Source: a virus
Virus record (IMG/VR): IMGVR_UViG_3300028840_003717
Reading direction: 5' to 3' (one strand)
DNA length: 22,356 nt
Positions 1,860 to 12,695 of the stretch are shown piece after piece (the stretch's first letter is position 1; every line of letters starts with the position of its first letter). The translations under genes and the position numbers were made by a program. The notes beneath the pieces are model-generated. The model did no database searches. It was given only the letters and a program-made list of their open reading frames with translations, and was not told the origin of the DNA.

Positions 1860-2510
1860 ATGGCAAGTGACACCCTCCTGGTCCGCCTGAAGGCCCGGAA
1901 CCCCCGGGCCGGTTTGAAGGCCAAGGACTACAGCCTCCGCTACAACAAGCCGGGGAGCCCCCATCATCGCCGGTGGTTCGATTTCAAGCGGCCGATGGTG
2001 TGGCACAGGGTCCCGGCGGAGGTGGGGGAAAAGCTCCGGACCGTGTGTCAGGACCCTTACAGGCCAAGTCCCCTCCTGTTTGACGTATGCACGGAGGAGG
2101 AGGCCAGGGCCTTGGACCACAAGGCCAGGGTGGAACGGGAACGGGCCAAGGCCATTGTGGAGCCCACGGTGGACACGGCCGTGGACATGACCGGCTCCAA
2201 GCCGGCCTCCAATGACGGCCGTGGCGACATGAGGCCGGAGGACCTGACCGTGGCGTCCCGCCGGAGGGAGGCCATGGAGGCGGCTGGCCGCCCCCAGGAG
2301 GCCACGGAGCCTCCGGTGGCCCCACCACCACCACCGGACGATGATGAGCCGGAGGAGCCGGAGGAGGAGCCGGAGGAGGCCAATGACGGGCCGTCAATGG
2401 CCTGGACCAGGGCCAAGCTCATGGCCTATGTCAGGGGGCTGGGGGTCAAGACCACCAAGTCCATGACCAAGGCTGACCTGTTGGAGGCCATAGGGATCGA
2501 TCCGGAGTGA
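1860..2510 (+). CDS. Hypothetical protein with acidic/Pro linker and C-terminal Rho-N/HeH-like helical domain (216 aa)
   Basis: C-terminus WTRAKLMAYVRGLGVKTTKSMTKADLLEAI fits a helix-extension-helix pattern common in genes after capsid genes. It is preceded by the PPPPPDDDEPEEPEEEPEE linker. Confidence 0.65.
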   Translation: MASDTLLVRLKARNPRAGLKAKDYSLRYNKPGSPHHRRWFDFKRPMVWHRVPAEVGEKLRTVCQDPYRPSPLLFDVCTEEEARALDHKARVERERAKAIVEPTVDTAVDMTGSKPASNDGRGDMRPEDLTVASRRREAMEAAGRPQEATEPPVAPPPPPDDDEPEEPEEEPEEANDGPSMAWTRAKLMAYVRGLGVKTTKSMTKADLLEAIGIDPE

Positions 2511-2530
2511 CCCTCCAGGAGGAGGTCCCT

Positions 2531-3031
2531 ATGTCCAACCAATCCACGGATGAGGTGGTGTGGTCCACCTCTGATTTCTCCATCGCGGCCTACCTCCACA
2601 GCCTGGGGGTCCGGCTGGTCAACGTGACGTTCCGCCAAGGCGGCCAACGTCAGGACGCTGTGTTCCACTTCGATGACCGGAGCGGCCGGTGTCCGGAGAT
2701 GGCCATCCGTTTCCTCAACTCGGACGCCTTCAGCTATGACCAGGGCCAACGCGCCCTCAAAAAGCTAGTCTTTGGCTGGGCCGGCCAGGAGGAGGCCGGG
2801 GAGCGGGGGACCTGGTCCACAACGGACTTCCCCCTGGCGTCCTACGTCCTGTCCTCCGGGGCGGAGTTTGTTGGGTTCCGTCGCATCCACCGGAGCCGGC
2901 GGGAGTATGAGTTTTATTTCAAGGACGGGGACGGGAGCTGTGAGGAGCTGTCCGTGGCCTTCGTCAACTCCGCGGCTCATCGCTTTGATCAATCCCAACG
3001 CGCCCTCAAAAAGCTAGTCTTCGGCCGGTAG
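2531..3031 (+). CDS. Tandem two-domain protein, DUF5659-like (166 aa)
   Basis: ATG at 2531 follows SD AGGAGGAGG and is preferred to the GTG at 2507. Two ~72-aa repeats: WST(S/T)DFx(I/L)A(A/S)Y...F(L/V)NSxAxx(Y/F)DQxQRALKKLVFG. The family name is from recall of the motif. Confidence 0.65.
   Translation: MSNQSTDEVVWSTSDFSIAAYLHSLGVRLVNVTFRQGGQRQDAVFHFDDRSGRCPEMAIRFLNSDAFSYDQGQRALKKLVFGWAGQEEAGERGTWSTTDFPLASYVLSSGAEFVGFRRIHRSRREYEFYFKDGDGSCEELSVAFVNSAAHRFDQSQRALKKLVFGR
2746..3021 (+). repeat. 27-bp perfect direct repeat CCAACGCGCCCTCAAAAAGCTAGTCTT (2746-2772 and 2995-3021)
   Basis: Read directly; each copy encodes the end of one protein repeat (QRALKKLVF). Confidence 0.95.
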
Positions 3032-3054
3032 CCTATAGCCTACAAGATCGTCCG

Positions 3055-3086
3055 CCTGTTCGGGTGGGGGGTCCCTGGTCTATACT
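3055..3086 (+). promoter_or_regulatory. Candidate promoter: CCTGTTCGGGTGGGG followed by -10-like TATACT
   Basis: Intergenic. The same 15-mer recurs at 11686-11700 at nearly the same distance from a -10-like TAGGCT. Confidence 0.4.
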
Positions 3087-3183
3087 CCAGGGGGGCCTTC
3101 CCGGGGGGATGGGTCCAGGTTGAGGTCAGGCGGAGTGGGACAGCTACCAGGACACGGCCGTCAGGCCATGAGGAGGAGACACG

Positions 3184-4668
3184 ATGGGACTCACCAGAAT
3201 CCGCCAGGACCATATCTGGTCTGAGAACGCCAGCATTGATGACAGCCTGAACCCCCCGGACCATGACGCCAACGCGGTGGACCTGAAGGACACCCTGGAC
3301 TACATGGCCTCACAGCTTGTGGACATCCTGGGGGAGACCAACTGGTATGACGCCCCGGACCTGTCCGTGTCCGCCATGGCGGCCAAGACATGGCTGGACG
3401 ACAAGAAGGCCCTCCGGGACTACCTCCACCTCCAGGACATCCCTGTCCCGGCCTCCCAAAACTACGTGGTCCTGTCCGCCACGGGGAGCCAAACACCCTC
3501 CAGGCCCATCGCGATCGGAGCGTCAACGTCCGGGTCCGTGGCGGCGGAGCTGTCCGGGGACGTGGGATCTCATGACCTGGCGGAGGTGGCTGGTCCCAAC
3601 GCCCTGAACCCGGAAAACCTGTGCATCGTCTTCGACGGTTCCACCGGTGACCCCATCAAGTCCAGCGGACGGCAAGTCTATGCCCTCCTCCAGGCGGAGA
3701 ACGGGGCGGCCGATGGTGGAGCATGGACGGACACGGCCAACCAAGGCCAGCTCTCTTTCGTCCGGCCCAACGCCACCTATGACGATCTGGAGGCTTGTCC
3801 TGTGGCGGACATTGAGTCCACCTCCATCAACTATGTCTACGCGGACCGGGAGACCCTGTCCCTGTGGGCCGCTTCGGACTTCCGCCGATCGTCGGTCCTG
3901 TTGGACCTGGCGGCCCCTGGTGTCACCATCACCATGGACATCGCATATGACGGCGGGAGCCTGGTCAACGTGGATGACACGGACGTTGACTTCCGCCTGA
4001 CGGACACCAAGCATTTCTATGTTTCGGACGTGTCCGGGGCGGCCCGTATCCTGGACGTCCACGCGGAGGCGGCTGGGGATGAGGTGGACATCAACGCCCC
4101 CGGCGGGATTGACGTGGCGGCCGGTGACCTCACCATGGCCAGCTCCAAGGCCACCATCAACGGGGTGGAGGTGGGTGGAGCGGCCGGCCAGGTGGCCACC
4201 CTGTCCGGTGACCTCATCCTGGACGGGGCCGATGACATCACGTTCACCACGGTCCGGGAGACCACTCCCCTCCCCTTGGACGACGCCACCAACGGTCCGA
4301 TCTCCGGCCTGGCCGGCGGACCCTTCACGTCCATTTCGGACGCGATCGCCTACGCTATCGAGTCCGGGACCAGCCTGACGATCGGGGTCACGGTTCTGGC
4401 GTCCAACTATGCCAGGGACGCCAACATCCCCGGCGGAGCTGGCGGCCTGGACATCTCCGCCGGGAACGGCCACTCCATCGACATGAACACCCCCTCCGGG
4501 GTGGACACCCTCCTGTTCCTCAACGGCCGTCTCCTGTATGGCGGCAACGACTCCACCAATAATGATGCCTATGCTGGAAACAACCCGGCGGCCGGTGACA
4601 TCAAGGTGGACTTCCCCGGTGGCGTCAAGTCCGGTGACGTGTTCATCGCGGTCCAATTCTCCGCCTAG
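3184..4668 (+). CDS. Probable virion structural / fibre-like protein (494 aa)
   Basis: SD GAGGAGGAG. Acidic, Gly/Ala/Thr/Asp-rich, beta-rich composition. C-terminal LLFLNGRLL...GD module resembles the 8090 and 8322 proteins. Confidence 0.65.
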   Translation: MGLTRIRQDHIWSENASIDDSLNPPDHDANAVDLKDTLDYMASQLVDILGETNWYDAPDLSVSAMAAKTWLDDKKALRDYLHLQDIPVPASQNYVVLSATGSQTPSRPIAIGASTSGSVAAELSGDVGSHDLAEVAGPNALNPENLCIVFDGSTGDPIKSSGRQVYALLQAENGAADGGAWTDTANQGQLSFVRPNATYDDLEACPVADIESTSINYVYADRETLSLWAASDFRRSSVLLDLAAPGVTITMDIAYDGGSLVNVDDTDVDFRLTDTKHFYVSDVSGAARILDVHAEAAGDEVDINAPGGIDVAAGDLTMASSKATINGVEVGGAAGQVATLSGDLILDGADDITFTTVRETTPLPLDDATNGPISGLAGGPFTSISDAIAYAIESGTSLTIGVTVLASNYARDANIPGGAGGLDISAGNGHSIDMNTPSGVDTLLFLNGRLLYGGNDSTNNDAYAGNNPAAGDIKVDFPGGVKSGDVFIAVQFSA

Positions 4669-4717
4669 CGGAGCCCCCACGTGAGCTGACCGGCCCGTGG
4701 CCGGAGGAGGTAGAGAT

Positions 4718-5365
4718 ATGACGGACAAGGTAGAGACGATTGGCCCCCAGGACCCCAAGGTCCATGGACAGGTCCAGGGGTTCCAACAGGTCCTCCAGGT
4801 GATGGAGCGGGACGTGGCTGGCCTGAAAGAACGCCAGATCTCACAGGAGGGGATCAGGACCGGGGCCATGGCCGTGGCGGCCCAGGTCCAGGGGATGATG
4901 GCTCCGATCCAGAAGGCTGTGGCGGCGGACACCATGGACCCGGAGGAGGCCAAGCTCCGCCGGGACACGATCATGGGGGCCATGGCCGTGGCGGAGGAGG
5001 TGGCCGCCAAGGCGGAGCGGGAGGCCATCCTCCTGAAGGGGGAGGCCCGTGGCCTGGCCCGTCAGGTCCAGTCCATCCGCAAGCTCCACCAGGGTGTCCT
5101 GGACGGGGAGCGGCGGAAGGCTGAGATGGAGGCGGACCAGGCGGAGGGCCGGTCCATGAGGTCAGGCCCGATCGGTTCTGGGAAGTCCGATGGCCAACAG
5201 GCTGACCAGCCCAAGGTCACGGCCAAGCCCAAGGCGAAGTCCAAGGCCGGCAAGGGGGCCAGGACGGCCTCCAAGGGCTCCAAGGCCAAGGGGAAGGCCA
5301 AGACCCCGGCCAAGGGCTCCAAGGCGTCCAGGGCGGCCACAGCCACCAAGGCGGCCGGGTCCTGA
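4718..5365 (+). CDS. Coiled-coil protein with Lys/Ala-rich (histone H1-like) C-terminal tail (215 aa)
   Basis: ATG at 4718 follows SD GGAGGAGG. Helical N-terminal part, then KPKAKSKAGKGARTASKGSKAKGKAKTPAKGSK. Confidence 0.7.
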   Translation: MTDKVETIGPQDPKVHGQVQGFQQVLQVMERDVAGLKERQISQEGIRTGAMAVAAQVQGMMAPIQKAVAADTMDPEEAKLRRDTIMGAMAVAEEVAAKAEREAILLKGEARGLARQVQSIRKLHQGVLDGERRKAEMEADQAEGRSMRSGPIGSGKSDGQQADQPKVTAKPKAKSKAGKGARTASKGSKAKGKAKTPAKGSKASRAATATKAAGS

Positions 5366-5367
5366 CG

Positions 5368-5823
5368 GTGGGGGTCACCCCGGATAGGTTCCCTGGCTCC
5401 AGGGAGGAGGATGAGCTGGTCCTCCGGCCGGCCACGGAGGACCCGGCCACGGAGGGAGCCCTCCGCTACGTCAACGGGGCCTGGAGGCTGGTGGACGGGT
5501 CCGGTGTCTTCGACCCCAGGACCGGAGGCTCCGGCCTCACCCCGGCTCAACACAACGCCCTGGACCAGCTTGTCCATGACGTCACGGAGTCATGTTTCTA
5601 TGAGATCGCCTACTCCGGGAACAGGATCACCACGGAGACGTGGTGGACGGACGCCACGAAGACCACCAAGGTCCGGGAGATCGGCTACACGTATTCCGGC
5701 TCCCTGGTGACCACGGAGACGTGGCGACAGTATGACGGGGCTGGTGTAGAGGTGGAGGCCCTGACCATCACCTACACCTACTCCGGGAACAGGGTGGTGT
5801 CCGCCACCTATGTGAGGAGCTGA
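5368..5823 (+). CDS. Hypothetical virion protein with three Y(T)YSG beta-hairpin (YD-like) repeats (151 aa)
   Basis: IAYSGNRITTETW / YTYSGSLVTTETW / YTYSGNRVVSATY. Fills the gap between neighbours exactly. GTG start is uncertain. Confidence 0.7.
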   Translation: MGVTPDRFPGSREEDELVLRPATEDPATEGALRYVNGAWRLVDGSGVFDPRTGGSGLTPAQHNALDQLVHDVTESCFYEIAYSGNRITTETWWTDATKTTKVREIGYTYSGSLVTTETWRQYDGAGVEVEALTITYTYSGNRVVSATYVRS

Positions 5824-5827
5824 CACC

Positions 5828-6739
5828 ATGCCGATCGTCCAGGTCATCGTGGATGAGTCCACCTCCAAGGTCATCGCCGGGGTCTACCAATGGGACCGGG
5901 CCTCCGGTGGGATCTTCGTCCCTCCGTCCGGGTCCGCGTTCCCGGCAAGCCCCCAGGAGGGGGAGTGGTTCTTCCGGACGGATGAGGGGATGGCCTACCG
6001 CTACTCCGGCTCCGTGTGGGAGGCCCAGGCGGCGGACGCGGCGGCCCATGACATCGCGGGACAGAAACACACCGGCCAGCTCCCTCACAGCTCCCTGTCC
6101 GGGATCGTTGCCGATGACCACCACCCCCATCCAAACAAGGCCCAACTGGACCTGGTCACGGACGGGGACCATGACGTCCGGGCGGACAATCCACACGGTG
6201 TGTCTCCCGGTCAGATCGGGGCGGCCACCACCAGCCACGCCAGCTCCCACCTCCCCACGGGGAGTGATCCGGTGGCCCGTCAAGCGGAGCTGATCTGTGT
6301 CCGTGAGTCCAACAATGGACAGAACCTGGCGGCCGGCGGGACGGTGATCGAATTTGACACCACCCACCTCAACACGGCCCCATCCCTGTTCACGCGGCTG
6401 GGCTCCACTGAGATCCAGTTTGAGACGGCCGGCCTGGTGGACATCATGGCCAAGGTCACCGTCCGACAGACGGCCGGGACCGGCCGGACGATCAGCATCC
6501 TGGGGGTGGAGTATTCGGATGATGGTGGGTCAAGCTGGACGCTGGTCCCGGGAGCCGGCGGAGCCCTCTACACCAGGAACAACACGGACGGCCACTATGG
6601 GACCCTGGTGGCGTCCGTCCGTGGCCAGGTAGGGGTGGGGGACCGGGTGAGGGTCTACGGGGAGCGGCTGGCCGGGACGGGGACGATCGCCCTGGTGGCC
6701 AATGGCTCCAACCTGGGGATCACGTGGTGGCCCCTATGA
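5828..6739 (+). CDS. Fibre-like protein with His-rich shaft motifs and C-terminal C1q/TNF-like domain (303 aa)
   Basis: FPASPQEGEWFFRTD motif. His motifs DDHHPH, NPHGV and HASSH are typical of trimeric fibres. C-terminal IEFDT...FETAGLVDI...VGDRVRV pattern is C1q/BclA-like. Confidence 0.65.
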   Translation: MPIVQVIVDESTSKVIAGVYQWDRASGGIFVPPSGSAFPASPQEGEWFFRTDEGMAYRYSGSVWEAQAADAAAHDIAGQKHTGQLPHSSLSGIVADDHHPHPNKAQLDLVTDGDHDVRADNPHGVSPGQIGAATTSHASSHLPTGSDPVARQAELICVRESNNGQNLAAGGTVIEFDTTHLNTAPSLFTRLGSTEIQFETAGLVDIMAKVTVRQTAGTGRTISILGVEYSDDGGSSWTLVPGAGGALYTRNNTDGHYGTLVASVRGQVGVGDRVRVYGERLAGTGTIALVANGSNLGITWWPL

Positions 6740-7437: not shown

Positions 7438-8103
7438 ATGAGCAACGGACGATCGGACTCAAGACACACCCCCATCCCCACGGACCTCATGGGCCTCACC
7501 AAGGCCGTCACCAGGATTGAGGAGGGGGTCACCACCATCAAGCGGGACCTCCTCCCTCCCGTGACGGCGGCCTCCGCGGAGGCCAGGGACGGGGTCATCA
7601 AGCTGGAGGGATGGTCCAAGGACCTCACCAGGAGGGTCAGGACTCTGGAGACCACTCCACCTCCGTCTCCGTCTCATGAGTGTCACCAGGACGATCGGCT
7701 GGACGCCCATGATCGGGCCATCACAGTCCAGGAGAAGGAAGTGGCCGGCCTGACCAAGTGGCGGACGTGGCTGGCGGCCATCACCATCCCCCTCCTCCTG
7801 GCGGCGGCCGGGACGGCCGGCAAGGCCATCAACGACTCCGCCACCACCAGGACCGTGGTCAACTCCAACACCAAGGCCATCACGAACCTGGTGGACGCCA
7901 GGGAGCGGGACAGGGACGCGATCATCCGGGAGGTCAGGACGGTCCCGGCCAAGGTTCAACAGGTGGCCACAACGGACCGTGAGGAGCGGGAGGCCCAGGA
8001 CAAGGCTCCCTCCATCACGGAGGTCAAGGCCAAGATGACGGCCAGCCAACGGAGGCGGCTGGAGCGTCTACTCCAGGAGGCGGAGATCGATGACGGGGGA
8101 TGA
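7438..8103 (+). CDS. Coiled-coil protein with one predicted transmembrane helix (221 aa)
   Basis: SD AGGAG. Hydrophobic stretch WLAAITIPLLLAAAGTAG is flanked by coiled-coil-like segments. Confidence 0.65.
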   Translation: MSNGRSDSRHTPIPTDLMGLTKAVTRIEEGVTTIKRDLLPPVTAASAEARDGVIKLEGWSKDLTRRVRTLETTPPPSPSHECHQDDRLDAHDRAITVQEKEVAGLTKWRTWLAAITIPLLLAAAGTAGKAINDSATTRTVVNSNTKAITNLVDARERDRDAIIREVRTVPAKVQQVATTDREEREAQDKAPSITEVKAKMTASQRRRLERLLQEAEIDDGG

Positions 8104-8320
8104 GCTGGTGGAGGATGCGATCGGGGTCATCAACGGGTTCAACACGTCCTACGCCACCCCCACCCCCTACCAGTCCGGAACCCTCCGGGCATTCCTCAAC
8201 GGCCAGCTCATCGCGGCCACGGATGACGATGGGCCAACGGAGACCGGAGCGGACACGTTCTCCATGGGGCTCCCCCCCAGGACGGGTGATAGACTCCGGG
8301 TGAGATACCTGGAGGCTTGA
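8090..8320 (+). CDS. Small beta-rich 'LNGQL' module protein (76 aa)
   Basis: SD GGAG; overlaps the upstream gene by 14 nt. Clear paralogue of the N-terminal half of 8322..8771 (GTLRxxLNGQLI...DDDGPxE...PRxGDxL). Confidence 0.75.
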   Translation: MTGDELVEDAIGVINGFNTSYATPTPYQSGTLRAFLNGQLIAATDDDGPTETGADTFSMGLPPRTGDRLRVRYLEA

Positions 8321-8321
8321 C

Positions 8322-8771
8322 GTGGACCCCATCCTGGAGCGGCTGACCTGGGCCACCATAGACGGAGCCAACACGGATTTTCAGACGTCCGTGGCCTATT
8401 GGCCAGGGACCCTCCGGGTCTACCTCAACGGCCAGCTCATCGGTGAGGCGGACGATGACGGACCGGTGGAGCTGGGGGGCCTGGACTTCCGCCTGGGGAT
8501 CGCCCCCAGGGTGGGGGACTACCTGGACGCATGGTTCCGGACGGAGGCCCCCACCCCGGGAGCCTACGTCCGGCCACCCCGGCCGGCCAAGGCCGTCCAC
8601 CTGACCCCGGACCCCCAGGCGGCCGTGGACCTCCGGCCGGTCCCCCAGGCCACGGAGGTCCCCGATGACGTGGACCTGACACCACGGCCCTCCAAGGCTG
8701 TGGAGCTGACCCCGGAGGGCCTGGCGGCCGTGGACCTCCGGCCCAAGCCTGTCCGAGCTGAGGAGGTATGA
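8322..8771 (+). CDS. 'LNGQL' module protein with C-terminal V(D/E/H)L(T/R)P repeats (149 aa)
   Basis: SD GGAGG, GTG start. Paralogous module followed by five ~10-aa Pro-rich repeats. Confidence 0.75.
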   Translation: MDPILERLTWATIDGANTDFQTSVAYWPGTLRVYLNGQLIGEADDDGPVELGGLDFRLGIAPRVGDYLDAWFRTEAPTPGAYVRPPRPAKAVHLTPDPQAAVDLRPVPQATEVPDDVDLTPRPSKAVELTPEGLAAVDLRPKPVRAEEV

Positions 8772-8772
8772 C

Positions 8773-9822
8773 ATGGCGGCCATCAAGACATTTTTCGTGG
8801 TGGAGTATCTGGACAACGTCCTGACCACCTATGACCAAATGAAGGTCTATCGGACCCTGGACCCCGTGGCTGGCCCGTGGGTGGAGGTCACTGGTCCGGG
8901 GACCAGGGTGGACCTGGTGGCCGGCCAGTCCCTCTATGAGTTTCTGGACCCGGCCGGGACCACGGACTCCTGGTATGCCTGGGCCTACTTCAACTCCGTC
9001 AGCCTGGCGGAGGGGAGCCGGTCTGAGGCCATCCAAGGATCGGACACCGGCGGCCTCTACGCCACGGTGGAGGACCTTCGTGAGGAGGGGGTCACGGTGG
9101 CCATGCTGGACGATGACCGGGCCTTGGCCAAGCTGACCACCTGGAGCCAGGCCATCGAAGCCTGGACCGGGAGGTGGTTTGAGCCACGGTCCAGGACGTT
9201 CCAGCTTGACGGTGACGGAGGGGAGGTCCAGCGGATCGGCCACCCCATCGTCCAGATCAGTGACGTCAAGCTGATCTCCGGCCGGGGGGTGTCCGGGTGG
9301 GACACGGACACCTATGACCTGGAGGACCTGGTGGTCTACAACCGTCACCTGACACAGGGCCTCCTCCGGCCCGATGACAGGATGAGGCCCAAGCTGGCCG
9401 TGGCGGACGTGGAGGGCCGGTTCTCCAGCCTGTCCCTGGCGGACTTCCCAAGGGGGAGGGCCAACATACAGGTGACAGGGATCTTTGGCTGGACGGAGCT
9501 ACAGCCTGGGGACCCTGTTGGGGAGACGGAGCCAGGCTCACAGGTCCCCCTTTCCTACGGGTCCACCCCAAAGCTCATCCGCCAGCTCACCCTCCTCCTG
9601 GTGGTCCGGGACCAGGCCCAAATGGCGGACCTGGACAGCCGGGAGGATTGGTCCATGAGGTGGCGGCTGTTGAGTGAGAAGACCAGGGACCAGTCCTATA
9701 CCATGGCGGCCCTGGGAGGTGGGGCCGGCGGGATGACCGGGGCCTGGACCGGGGACCCTGTCATTGACGGGATCATCGCAACCTACAAGGCCGGCTCCAG
9801 GTCCATGGCGGAGGCCGTGTGA
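8773..9822 (+). CDS. Head-tail adaptor/connector with N-terminal FN3-like extension (349 aa)
   Basis: SD GGAGGT. YATVEDLRE motif, SQAIEAWTGRWF, FPRGRANIQVTGIFGW, PKLIRQLTLLL and SEKTRDQSYT are typical of HK97 gp6/SPP1 gp15-type adaptors. Confidence 0.8.
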   Translation: MAAIKTFFVVEYLDNVLTTYDQMKVYRTLDPVAGPWVEVTGPGTRVDLVAGQSLYEFLDPAGTTDSWYAWAYFNSVSLAEGSRSEAIQGSDTGGLYATVEDLREEGVTVAMLDDDRALAKLTTWSQAIEAWTGRWFEPRSRTFQLDGDGGEVQRIGHPIVQISDVKLISGRGVSGWDTDTYDLEDLVVYNRHLTQGLLRPDDRMRPKLAVADVEGRFSSLSLADFPRGRANIQVTGIFGWTELQPGDPVGETEPGSQVPLSYGSTPKLIRQLTLLLVVRDQAQMADLDSREDWSMRWRLLSEKTRDQSYTMAALGGGAGGMTGAWTGDPVIDGIIATYKAGSRSMAEAV

Positions 9823-9869
9823 TGAGGGGGAGGCTGATCCAACGGTGGTTTGATTCGTGGCGGTTGTAG
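9822..9869 (+). pseudogene. Orphaned original 5' end of the head-closure gene (mini-ORF MRGRLIQRWFDSWRL*)
   Basis: ATG overlaps the adaptor stop (TGATG). The first 8 codons encode the same peptide as the start of 10349..10846, then the frame stops at TAG 9867-9869. Confidence 0.8.
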
Positions 9870-10372
9870 TGACATCATCCGTCCATGCCATTGAAGGACC
9901 CGGAGGCAAGGCGGGAGTATGAGCGTCAACGGAGGGAGCGGATCAAGAGTGACCCGGACCTCCTGGAGCGGAGGAGGGAGCAGAACAGGCGAGGACAGCG
10001 CAAGCAACGCCAGCTCCATCCAAACCGTGTCAAGGCCACGCAAAGACGATACCACAGGGCCAACCCTGGGAAGGCAAGGGAGGCCATCCTTCGGAGGGAC
10101 TACGGGATCGGGATCTCGGACTATGACAAGATGGAGGAGGCCCAGGGTGGCCTTTGCGCGATCTGTGGGTCTGCGGAGACAACCAATGACCCAAGGACTG
10201 GCAAAGTCAGGCGGCTGGCCGTGGACCATGACAAGAAAACAGGATGTGTCCGTGGGCTCCTGTGTCGCCGGTGTAACACGGCCATCGGCCTCCTGGACCA
10301 CGACTCCAACCGGCTCAACAGGGCCGTGGAATACCTGGAGGTGAGCCGGTGCGCGGAAGGCTAATTCAGAGG
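9846..10372 (+). mobile_element. 527-bp free-standing homing-endonuclease-like insertion carrying a recoded host-gene start
   Basis: Deleting 9846-10372 joins MRGRLIQR to FRATIKR in frame and restores the TGATG coupling to the adaptor gene. The segment contains a nuclease gene and is more A-rich than its flanks. Confidence 0.75.
9885..10364 (+). CDS. Endonuclease VII (T4 gp49-like, HNH/His-Me) family nuclease (159 aa)
   Basis: YGI...QGGLCAICG...LAVDHDKKTGCVRGLLCRRCNTAIGLL signature with two CxxC pairs and DH/N catalytic motifs. Arg-rich N-terminal extension. Confidence 0.92.
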   Translation: MPLKDPEARREYERQRRERIKSDPDLLERRREQNRRGQRKQRQLHPNRVKATQRRYHRANPGKAREAILRRDYGIGISDYDKMEEAQGGLCAICGSAETTNDPRTGKVRRLAVDHDKKTGCVRGLLCRRCNTAIGLLDHDSNRLNRAVEYLEVSRCAEG

Positions 10373-10846
10373 TTTCGGGCCACCATCAAGCGGCTGGACA
10401 CGGCGGCCACGGGGACGTCCCCAGGCTATGACTCCGTGTTCCGTGAGGTGGTCAGGACGGACACGGACGGGGACGGGATCGGGGAGCCGGGGAGGGCCTA
10501 CCACCCGGAGGAGGTCATCACCGTCCAAATGGACCCCACCACCCTGGACACCCTCCAGGCCCACACCCTGGGCCAGGACCCGGACTATGACGTGGTGTTC
10601 CTGGCTCACTTCCGTGAGCTGGAGGCCCTGGGCCTGGTGGGGACGGACGGGATGGCCCTGATCCAGGAGGGGACCAGGCTGGTCAAGGTGGAGGACCTTC
10701 GTGGGAACCAGGTCTATCAGCCCAGGGACACGGAGGAGGCCGGCCTGGAGGTCACCGGGGTCACTCCTGTTGGGTGGGGCCTCAACATGGCCAGCCCCTC
10801 CAGGAACCTGTTGGAGGTCCGGCTGTCCAGGCGGAGGCTGGAGTAG
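10349..10846 (+). CDS. Probable head closure/stopper protein (165 aa)
   Basis: SD GGAGGTGA at 10337-10344, GTG start. Lies between the adaptor and the virion morphogenesis gene. GYDSVFRE motif and beta-rich pattern. Confidence 0.7.
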   Translation: MRGRLIQRFRATIKRLDTAATGTSPGYDSVFREVVRTDTDGDGIGEPGRAYHPEEVITVQMDPTTLDTLQAHTLGQDPDYDVVFLAHFRELEALGLVGTDGMALIQEGTRLVKVEDLRGNQVYQPRDTEEAGLEVTGVTPVGWGLNMASPSRNLLEVRLSRRRLE

Positions 10847-11557
10847 ATGGCCAGGGGGTCCACGGTCCGGCTCCAAGGGGACTGGAACGGCCTGGCCAGG
10901 ATGATGACCACGGTGTCCTCCAGGTCCATGTGGAGGATGGCCAGCTCCAGGGCCATGGGCCGCGAGGCTCACCGGCTCCATGGGATCATTGTCAAGGGCT
11001 TCAACTCCCAAGGCCCCAAGGGGGTCAAGTGGAAGAAGCTGGCCAGGATGACGATCGCCCTCCGGAGGGCCGTCCACGGCCGGAGGGGGACCAAGGCCCT
11101 CATGTTGTCCGGAGACATGAGAGCGTCCGTGAAGGTGGTTCAAGAGGGTGAGGACTGGTTCGTGGGTGTCCACCGTTCCGAAAAGGGGAAGGGGGGAAAG
11201 TCCATGGTGGACATAGCCTCCGTCCATGAGATGGGCTCCAAGAAGCCCATCCGGATCAAGGTGACCCCCAGGATGAGGGCCTTTTTCATGGCCATGTTCC
11301 TGAAGACCACCACCCCAGCCCATCGGAAACGGATGGCCCGGTCCAAGCGGTCCGGCAAGCCAGGCCGGGGCCGTATGCCGAAATACGCGATCCTCCCCCT
11401 GGCCAAGTCCACCAAGGTCATCGTGGTCCGTATCCCGGCCAGGCCGTTCATCGGCCCGGTGTGGGAGGCGGAGAAGGACAAGTCCGCGGCCAACATCATC
11501 AACGGGACCCTGGCCAGTATGGGGATGGGGAAGTATGTCAAGGGTCTGAGACGCTAG
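10847..11557 (+). CDS. Virion morphogenesis / neck protein (P2 gpS, Mu gpG, HK97 gp10-like; 236 aa)
   Basis: KWKKLARMTI, LMLSGDMRAS, IASVHEMGS and IPARPFIGP motifs. Very basic. Confidence 0.85.
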   Translation: MARGSTVRLQGDWNGLARMMTTVSSRSMWRMASSRAMGREAHRLHGIIVKGFNSQGPKGVKWKKLARMTIALRRAVHGRRGTKALMLSGDMRASVKVVQEGEDWFVGVHRSEKGKGGKSMVDIASVHEMGSKKPIRIKVTPRMRAFFMAMFLKTTTPAHRKRMARSKRSGKPGRGRMPKYAILPLAKSTKVIVVRIPARPFIGPVWEAEKDKSAANIINGTLASMGMGKYVKGLRR

Positions 11558-11729
11558 CCTGTGGCCCTGGCGGCCTCCAGGAGTCCGGCTGGAGGCCCGG
11601 AGGTATGTTGGGCCGTCCGATCGTTCCGAGGCTCCACGGGCCTCCTGGCGGCCCTCCTGGCCGTGGACCAGCCACACCCCCTTGTCCTGTTCGGGTGGGG
11701 TGTGGTGTGGTAGGCTAAGGTCCGACACC
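11558..11729 (+). promoter_or_regulatory. Structured intergenic region with three inverted repeats and a candidate promoter
   Basis: Stems at 11572-11580/11589-11597, 11633-11639/11661-11667 and 11672-11680/11697-11705. 15-mer at 11686-11700 and TAGGCT at 11711-11716. Confidence 0.45.
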
Positions 11730-12695
11730 ATGACGGCCCCAACGATAGCCACGATCACCCCCACGGAAGGCCACCCTGGGGGGACCTATGTCCTCCGGGT
11801 GGAGGGGGCGGACTTCCAGCTCCCACCAGCTCCGGCGGCCTCCGGCTACGTGGGAGGGGACGTCCCTGTGTCCATGGAGCTGGAGGTCAACGGTGTCCAG
11901 GCGGAGGAGGTCAAGGTGTTCTCCACCAGCCTCCTGACGGCCCTGGTCCCGGCCTTTGAGGGAGACCCCGGGGACCTGGAGACCGGCCTGGCCGTGGACG
12001 TCACCATCCGGAACCTGGACTCCGGTCCAGGGCCGGAGGAGACAACCTACACGGACCTGTTCACCTATCGCCGGACGGCCCTGGCCGGCCGGGAGGGGAT
12101 CGTGGTCAGGGTCATCCGGGAATTCATCCTGTCCCTCCGTCGCCAGGTCCTGGACAACGTGGCCCTGGCCACGGACACGGCCTATGACCCGGAGACGGGT
12201 GACGCCCTGGACACGGTGGCCCTGGCGGACACCCCAGGGATCGCCCTGTTTGGTCCGTCCCTGACGGAGGACCTGTTTCGGCGGAGGCCCACGGGGGAGG
12301 CTCCCCAGGATGCCGGCCTGACGGAATACACCAGGTTCAGGGAGTCCAGCTACATGGTCCTGGGCTTCGATGGAGCGATCGTGGTCAGGGACTCCATGAT
12401 TGAGCTGGTCCAGCTCCAACAGGAGGTGGTCCTGTTCTTTCGGCGGAACCCGGACCTGGTGGTGGCCGTTGACCCTGGGGACGCCAGCCTGGGGAGGGCC
12501 AAGCTGGAGCTGTGGCTAACGGCCCCACCCACGGTGACGGACAACGTCAACCTGGGGGGGACGCGATCGGCCTCGTTCTCGTGCGAGATCCGGAGCGTTC
12601 CGGTTGATGATGATACGTGGCTCCCGGTGGAATGGGGGACCGTCCTGGCGGACCCGGCGGACCTCAACATCCTGACCGGACAGGTGGAGGAATGA
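11730..12695 (+). CDS. Probable tail terminator/completion protein with N-terminal IPT/TIG domain (321 aa)
   Basis: APTIATITPTEGHPGGTYVLRVEGADF...STSLLTALVP...VDVTIRN...FTY is an IPT/TIG pattern. The C-terminal domain and pre-sheath position suggest a terminator. ATG at 11730 is preferred to the TTG at 11682. Confidence 0.7.
   Translation: MTAPTIATITPTEGHPGGTYVLRVEGADFQLPPAPAASGYVGGDVPVSMELEVNGVQAEEVKVFSTSLLTALVPAFEGDPGDLETGLAVDVTIRNLDSGPGPEETTYTDLFTYRRTALAGREGIVVRVIREFILSLRRQVLDNVALATDTAYDPETGDALDTVALADTPGIALFGPSLTEDLFRRRPTGEAPQDAGLTEYTRFRESSYMVLGFDGAIVVRDSMIELVQLQQEVVLFFRRNPDLVVAVDPGDASLGRAKLELWLTAPPTVTDNVNLGGTRSASFSCEIRSVPVDDDTWLPVEWGTVLADPADLNILTGQVEE

Follow-up and report, generated by a model that had tools for sequence, protein, structure and literature searches.

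In a 22,356-nucleotide stretch of viral DNA (IMG/VR record IMGVR_UViG_3300028840_003717, hereafter the window), positions 9846-10372 are probably a nuclease cassette that was placed after codon 8 of a neck gene by cut and rescue, and that ends in a donor's SD sequence and codons 1-8. The ribosome-binding site and the eight codons borne by the cassette likely keep the neck gene expressed without splicing, the native start persisting upstream as a 15-codon stub.

The window is spanned by a structural operon in which matches to domain and PHROG profiles identify capsid, adaptor, Neck1, sheath, tube, tape measure and baseplate genes. Region 8300-12000 occurs unbroken, with 0 differences, in two public contigs, either of which may be the source of this DNA. 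The head-tail adaptor gene (8773..9822, + strand; phrog_442, E 1.3e-13) has a TGA stop that overlaps the ATG of the stranded start (TGATG), and the tail completion or Neck1 gene (10847..11557, + strand; phrog_222, E 1.1e-11) provides the context on the other side. Between the adaptor and Neck1 genes, which is the expected head-closure position, lies the 165-aa neck gene (10349..10846, + strand), apparently a hybrid of foreign codons 1-8 or 1-9 and a host-like remainder; it matches phrog_14218, a PHROG whose function is unknown. The predicted model of the neck protein (pLDDT 77) had no Foldseek match at E<=0.001; among the weaker rows were T4 neck entries (probability 0.85-0.95), the P1 connector and gp16, alongside tube and Hcp proteins, and no sequence match was found in the PDB. 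From gene position and these weak fold matches, the gene is likely to encode a head-closure protein (stopper, similar to SPP1 gp16 and T4 gp14), and it is likely essential. The designation "head-closure gene" in an earlier note on this DNA can be retained on that footing, that is, with no significant family match behind it. Elsewhere in the window, the two small adjacent genes at 8090-8320 and 8322-8771 are paralogs (54% identity over 56 aa), the second having short Pro-rich repeats at its end. Arginine is mostly encoded by CGG and AGG, and the words GTAC, GCGC, CTGC/GCAG and TGCA are strongly avoided throughout, which suggests host restriction sites.

The peptide MRGRLIQR is encoded twice, on either side of an endonuclease VII gene. 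The upstream copy (9822..9845, + strand) reads ATG AGG GGG AGG CTG ATC CAA CGG and is followed by WFDSWRL, a TAG (9867-9869) and a TGA. The downstream copy (10349..10372, + strand), which overlaps the last codons and the stop of the nuclease gene, reads GTG CGC GGA AGG CTA ATT CAG AGG and continues as the 165-aa ORF. The copies are 527 nt apart and differ in 7/8 codons and 8/24 nt without any change of the peptide, their longest identical run being 5 nt. A re-reading of the sequence found all of this exactly as the earlier note had it, including the TGATG coupling of the upstream copy, its death 7 codons later, the SD of the downstream copy and the nuclease stop (TAA, 10362-10364) that falls inside that copy. 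The duplication is not due to chance: the probability of RGRLIQR at one fixed position is 1.2e-8, and among random sets of 7 substitutions only 9 of 300,000 kept the peptide. CTA and ATT in the downstream copy are rare codons, as had been noted (2% of Leu and 9% of Ile in the window), but rare codons alone are weak evidence, because 2/20 other gene starts are equally low in codon index over codons 2-8 (0.26 vs 0.28). The nuclease stop cannot be invoked as the cause of CTA ATT either, since CTG ATC gives a TGA at the same place. As T9846 is also common to both copies, the left joint lies at 9845 or 9846. In the stub, CAA CGG TGG TTT (9840-9851) could be read as CGG TTT (codons 8-9) with a 3-base duplication, possibly a repair scar, or could be chance.

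Relatives indicate which of the copies is native. We fetched 95 loci of the neck-gene family, 89 of which have both an adaptor and a neck-gene match; in 73 of these 89 a motif allowed the start to be called, with 15 lacking the motif and 1 mis-called. The closest loci with DNA have 48% protein identity, and close relatives are available as proteins (P0002-P0004, P0035 and P0036, 74-84% identical). The MRGRLI start is near-invariant in 33 neck-protein homologs. The neck start falls within -4..+3 nt of the adaptor stop in 63/73 loci, and a one-base (-1) overlap of stop and start, mostly TGATG, as in the upstream copy, is found in 43/73. Since relatives couple the neck start directly to the adaptor stop, the upstream copy occupies the ancestral position and the nuclease arrived later; both the optional nature of the insert and the ancestral character of the upstream start, as proposed earlier, are borne out by these counts. 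Judged by sequence, composition and the junction in relatives, the upstream copy is very probably the stranded native start. No nuclease-free relative carrying both copies was seen: a second neck start was found neither in the 10 loci checked that have a gap at the junction (L093, and 9 of the 10 loci with larger gaps, as L023 is a twin of L022) nor in six others whose N-terminal motif is the most similar and of which three lie on contigs already in the set; each of these six has one start. In another relative (L082, 1896-1962, on the same contig as L303), a 65-nt spacer separates the adaptor stop from the neck start and holds a 20-codon mini-ORF ending LGGAV-stop; this end resembles the adaptor C-terminus, and the mini-ORF is possibly the remnant of a lost insert.

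The composition of the two copies points in the same direction. Under an order-3 Markov model trained on the rest of the window, with held-out scoring, the upstream copy scores -1.67, which is typical of the genome. The downstream copy scores -2.58, below all 20 other gene starts (next lowest -2.37) and at a level reached by 0.03% of host windows, a test of the copies that rests on 24 nt in a gene region, the start, that is often atypical. The codon likelihood ratio of stub to replacement is ~1,570. The 527-nt insert as a whole scores below all 6,910 host windows, and its left 39 nt (9846..9884) below 98% of them. The word GCGC, avoided by the genome (0.41 per kb), occurs 3 times in the insert, one of these in the replacement start. 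Scores are back at host level from 10376 (codon 10), and foreign sequence may extend through codon 9 (to 10375). The stub, although a dead end, has undergone no amino-acid change, and all the differences are silent; from this we infer that the copies diverged before the insertion, in different phages, each as a working start. Most likely, then, the replacement start arrived from another phage along with the nuclease, its differences already in place, and was not recoded here.

The earlier note had favoured recoding in this lineage: the start would have been duplicated here and the working copy then recoded, for immunity to the nuclease and against loss by recombination. The silence of every difference and the longest identical run of 5 nt would agree with this, and silent changes can confer immunity, as WHO6 is resistant with 8 of 24 silent changes (bioRxiv 10.64898/2026.08.13.744650, in the part available). 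However, recoding would have had to make eight changes in the working copy, among them a two-base codon swap and ATG to GTG, while the neutral stub took no amino-acid change, and a few changes would suffice. The working copy holds a genome-avoided word and matches the insert, not the host, and an identical duplicate would presumably have been open to cleavage by its own nuclease from the outset if the site lies across the joint. Recoding in place appears very improbable, and the differences between the copies are better explained by a foreign allele that had diverged in another phage before its arrival.

The arrangement of expression signals fits a gene read from its replacement start. No in-frame start other than GTG 10349 lies near the 5' end of the 165-aa gene, which upholds the claim that the downstream copy is the only usable neck start. 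GTG 10349 has a strong SD, GGAGGTGA (10337..10344, + strand; duplex -10.6 kcal/mol with an assumed anti-SD motif, as for all duplex energies here), inside the nuclease codons L-E-V-S. The stub ATG retains its own GGAGG motif (9810..9814, + strand, inside the adaptor gene; -9.5 kcal/mol) and its translational coupling to the adaptor stop. These two signals are what might favour a self-splicing intron or a ribosome bypass in which the upstream start is used. An intron is nevertheless impossible, since the non-coding part of the insert is only 39 bases, Rfam gives no intron match at E up to 5 (3 weak unrelated matches), no U...G boundary in the insert restores both frame and peptide, and the RNA folding of the insert is ordinary (z 0.2-1.1). 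Together with the strong SD of the downstream start, this leaves splicing or bypass with hardly any probability, and the arrangement is splicing-free, as had been claimed. A group I intron with an endonuclease was rejected for lack of an intron core and of a U...G boundary restoring the frame. The left end of the insert (9846..9884, + strand, 39 nt) closes the 15-aa stub ORF (WFDSWRL, TAG TGA), in frame with the nuclease ATG, which lies 15 nt past the stub stop and has no SD (duplex -0.1 kcal/mol, the weakest of 23 starts). Ribosomes leaving the adaptor gene would translate the stub and then re-initiate weakly on the SD-less nuclease gene.

The nuclease gene (9885..10364, + strand) encodes an endonuclease VII-type (DHHRN-like) protein of 159 aa with a basic N-terminal half and a C-terminal catalytic domain (PF02945, E 5.2e-21, residues 69-152), the C-terminal position of the Endo VII domain being shared with the F-CphI clade (PMC6083498, part of the article). 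Both CX2C pairs (C91/C94 and C127/C130) and the motif residues D114, H115, R123 and N131 are present, but the second motif histidine (H43 of T4 Endo VII) is Lys117 here. Among 119 homologs, this position is His in 103 and another residue in 16, Lys in 2. As the H43T mutant of T4 Endo VII is reported inactive (PMC6083498, same part), Lys117 suggests that the nuclease may be weak or dead, with the reservation that 16/119 homologs also do without this His. Given the missing second His, we would not file the protein as a full DHHRN (F-CphI-like) member. P0041 is a full-length relative, at 50%, and the nuclease is free-standing and optional between conserved genes, as are DHHRN homing endonucleases.

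Endonuclease VII genes also occupy this junction in other phages. In L073, a truncated Endo VII gene overlaps a TTG neck start (LRGKLI) whose SD lies in the last nuclease codons, and in L093 two tandem Endo VII genes at the adaptor/neck junction are followed by an MRGALI start. In both, the start motif is altered and neck start and SD lie inside the nuclease end, a donor-type layout without a stub. The nucleases of the window, L073 and L093 form no common clade in a tree that comes from a short alignment and has low support. Such nucleases at the same junction may lend modest support to targeting; the L093 case is weak evidence, because four Endo VII genes, three of which form a clade, lie within 6 kb of its neck-tail region (2151-5834). 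Unrelated genes have entered the same junction in L022, L040, L054, L085, L091 and L092. This is one of the points in favour of a mosaic accident, in which a nuclease and gene-start module of distant phage origin was taken in by homology at the conserved neck start, with an illegitimate left join and no targeted cutting here; the mosaic would have survived only through the start that was carried in, and the nuclease would target elsewhere or be dead, with no cut-and-rescue function. The His-to-Lys change in the nuclease motif would also agree with such an accident, as would the rule, for the free-standing nucleases of T4, that cleavage is distant, hundreds to thousands of bases from the insertion site (PMC2988022, in the sections available). 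For the latter reason the insertion joint need not be the target. Yet none of the unrelated inserts left a stub, whereas four further endonuclease VII loci did (see below); moreover, the nuclease ORF is intact, and the joint falls where the most conserved motif of the family ends, a type of site favoured by homing nucleases (PMC2988022, same sections). We therefore regard the mosaic accident as unlikely, although a better contender than recoding in place, and the position of the joint suggests that it is the cut site.

Under the cut-and-rescue reading that we prefer, the donor phage would have carried a free-standing homing nuclease between its adaptor and neck genes, the neck start overlapping the nuclease end, as in L073 and L093. 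During a mixed infection, the donor nuclease would have cut the recipient allele near codons 8-9. The right end would have been repaired by homology just past the cut, where host-like composition begins again (10376), and the left end would have been joined without homology, stranding codons 1-8. The differences in spelling would have come with the donor allele, and selection for the conserved peptide, acting in both lineages, would have kept them silent. With a site that spans codons 8-9, the donor spelling would make the right junction resistant, a property carried over and not a recoding. A site wholly within codons 1-8 would leave the stub cuttable, and a site across the joint would need the donor spelling for resistance. 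From then on, homing between close relatives could proceed by ordinary two-sided homology, following the model for WHO elements (PMC7282813, in the part available).

Mobile elements that supply a replacement end for the gene they interrupt, with silent differences, include SXT at prfC and the lambdoid phage 21 at icd; these rely on an integrase and att sites and can excise, whereas the 527-bp cassette has neither an integrase nor an att core. In fungal mitochondria, end replacement by endonuclease ORFs is established, in Glomus for atp6, atp9, cox2 and nad3 (PMC3630166, available portion), the same portion also citing an atp6 gene hybrid of Allomyces macrogynus. These mORF hybrids share with the window an endonuclease ORF between two copies of a gene end, without splicing; in them the inserted copy is foreign and functional and the native copy displaced, with which the composition of the window agrees, over 24 nt. 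They differ in that they concern C-termini (tens of codons), LAGLIDADG or GIY-YIG ORFs and mitochondria, whereas the window concerns an N-terminus (8 codons plus SD and start) in a phage structural operon, with an Endo VII-type ORF overlapping the new start. The WHO elements at FBA1 of Torulaspora and Lachancea carry, beside a nuclease, part of an essential gene in a resistant version; the fragment they displace can act as a homology arm, and resistance stems from an allelic difference in sequence (PMC7282813; bioRxiv 10.64898/2026.08.13.744650, both as far as available). They alone have a LAGLIDADG nuclease with a zinc finger, the 3' half of FBA1 as target, a nuclear location, clusters of successive elements and demonstrated cleavage, the window being known from sequence. 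Both fungal systems replace 3' ends and the window a 5' end. A splicing-free way of sitting in an essential gene, as the earlier note proposed, is not unprecedented (PMC3630166, PMC7282813, available parts); what is known already is end replacement by endonuclease ORFs in fungi, and what is new here is the 5' end, the phage and the Endo VII-type nuclease.

In phages, T4 seg/mob and Aeh1 mobE resemble the window as optional, promoter-less nuclease cassettes between conserved genes, with signals of the next gene embedded in the nuclease ORF (PMC2988022, available sections). The phage cases described there are intergenic or divide the host gene so that it yields two polypeptides (mobE in nrdA, mobA in gene 60), and F-CphI relies on an intron (PMC6083498, available part). 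The accessible portions of PMC2988022, PMC10448857 and PMC12724721 contained no duplicated gene start beside a phage nuclease, and no phage precedent was found in the main texts of a literature drawn mostly from non-subscription journals. Besides introns or inteins and split genes, bringing a spare gene end would thus be a third means by which a phage homing nuclease resides inside a needed gene.

Endo VII genes with the same anatomy do occur in other phages. Among 167 distinct Endo VII ORFs, 117 had full flanks, including the window, and were scored for flank duplication against a threshold of 46 (the 99th percentile over 400 shuffled pairs). On inspection, 4 of the 116 others (L120, L192, L125 and L229) have a real duplication of one end of the gene next to the nuclease, a count from a non-random sample made up of relatives of one nuclease and of motif scans, one of which covered 2/64 parts. 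The search for phage nucleases flanked by duplications of the same peptide in different codons was thereby rewarded in L120 (2360-3860), where a queE-like radical SAM gene has a 17-codon stub, MSKIKVAELFYSIQG-VS-stop, in translational coupling with the gene before it; the Endo VII gene comes next, followed by a putative replacement start, MSKIKIAELFYSLQG-EGRY, that overlaps the nuclease end; over 15 codons, the two copies have 5 the same, 8 silent and 2 conservative differences. In a start-anchored test, 6-7 of 7 identities were reached in 2/117 loci, the window and L120, and shuffled pairs never exceeded 5 (n=3,000). In L192 (1022-1797), the Endo VII ORF opens with a DUF5681 N-terminal motif and a full DUF5681 gene follows, before a terminase-like gene; the stub appears to be fused in frame to the nuclease. 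The two others are of a 3' form, closest to the WHO and mORF layouts: behind the Endo VII gene lies a putative displaced copy of a C-terminus, from thyX in L125 (1774-3030, ~41 codons) and from a lambda-type portal gene in L229 (1-1670, >70 codons). No duplicated gene end was found in 17 cultured-phage loci.

By its sequence, the window is thus a clean example of a recurring phage arrangement. One might go further and speculate, more tentatively than for the window itself, that these loci belong to a widespread and as yet unnamed phage class of splicing-free homing elements, each pairing an Endo VII-type nuclease with a resistant substitute for one end, 5' or 3', of a conserved gene (neck, queE, terminase-region, thyX, portal). 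Such elements would act as a natural cut-and-rescue drive and be to phages what WHO elements are to yeasts. Where the 5' end is replaced, the stranded start would have two roles, left homology arm and leader ORF keeping nuclease expression low, and each stub would mark the target site. If stubs do mark cut sites, genome sequences could suffice to give the targets of many uncharacterised DHHRN nucleases, and the short allele pair in the window makes this idea directly testable. For annotation, phage gene ends adjoining such nucleases can be foreign, and the short stub ORFs or GTG starts that accompany them invite mis-annotation. In one further locus (L223, - strand), similar terminator-like hairpins at ~790-830 and 1425-1465 stand on both sides of an Endo VII gene that follows a capsid-like gene, a duplicated signal and not a duplicated peptide.
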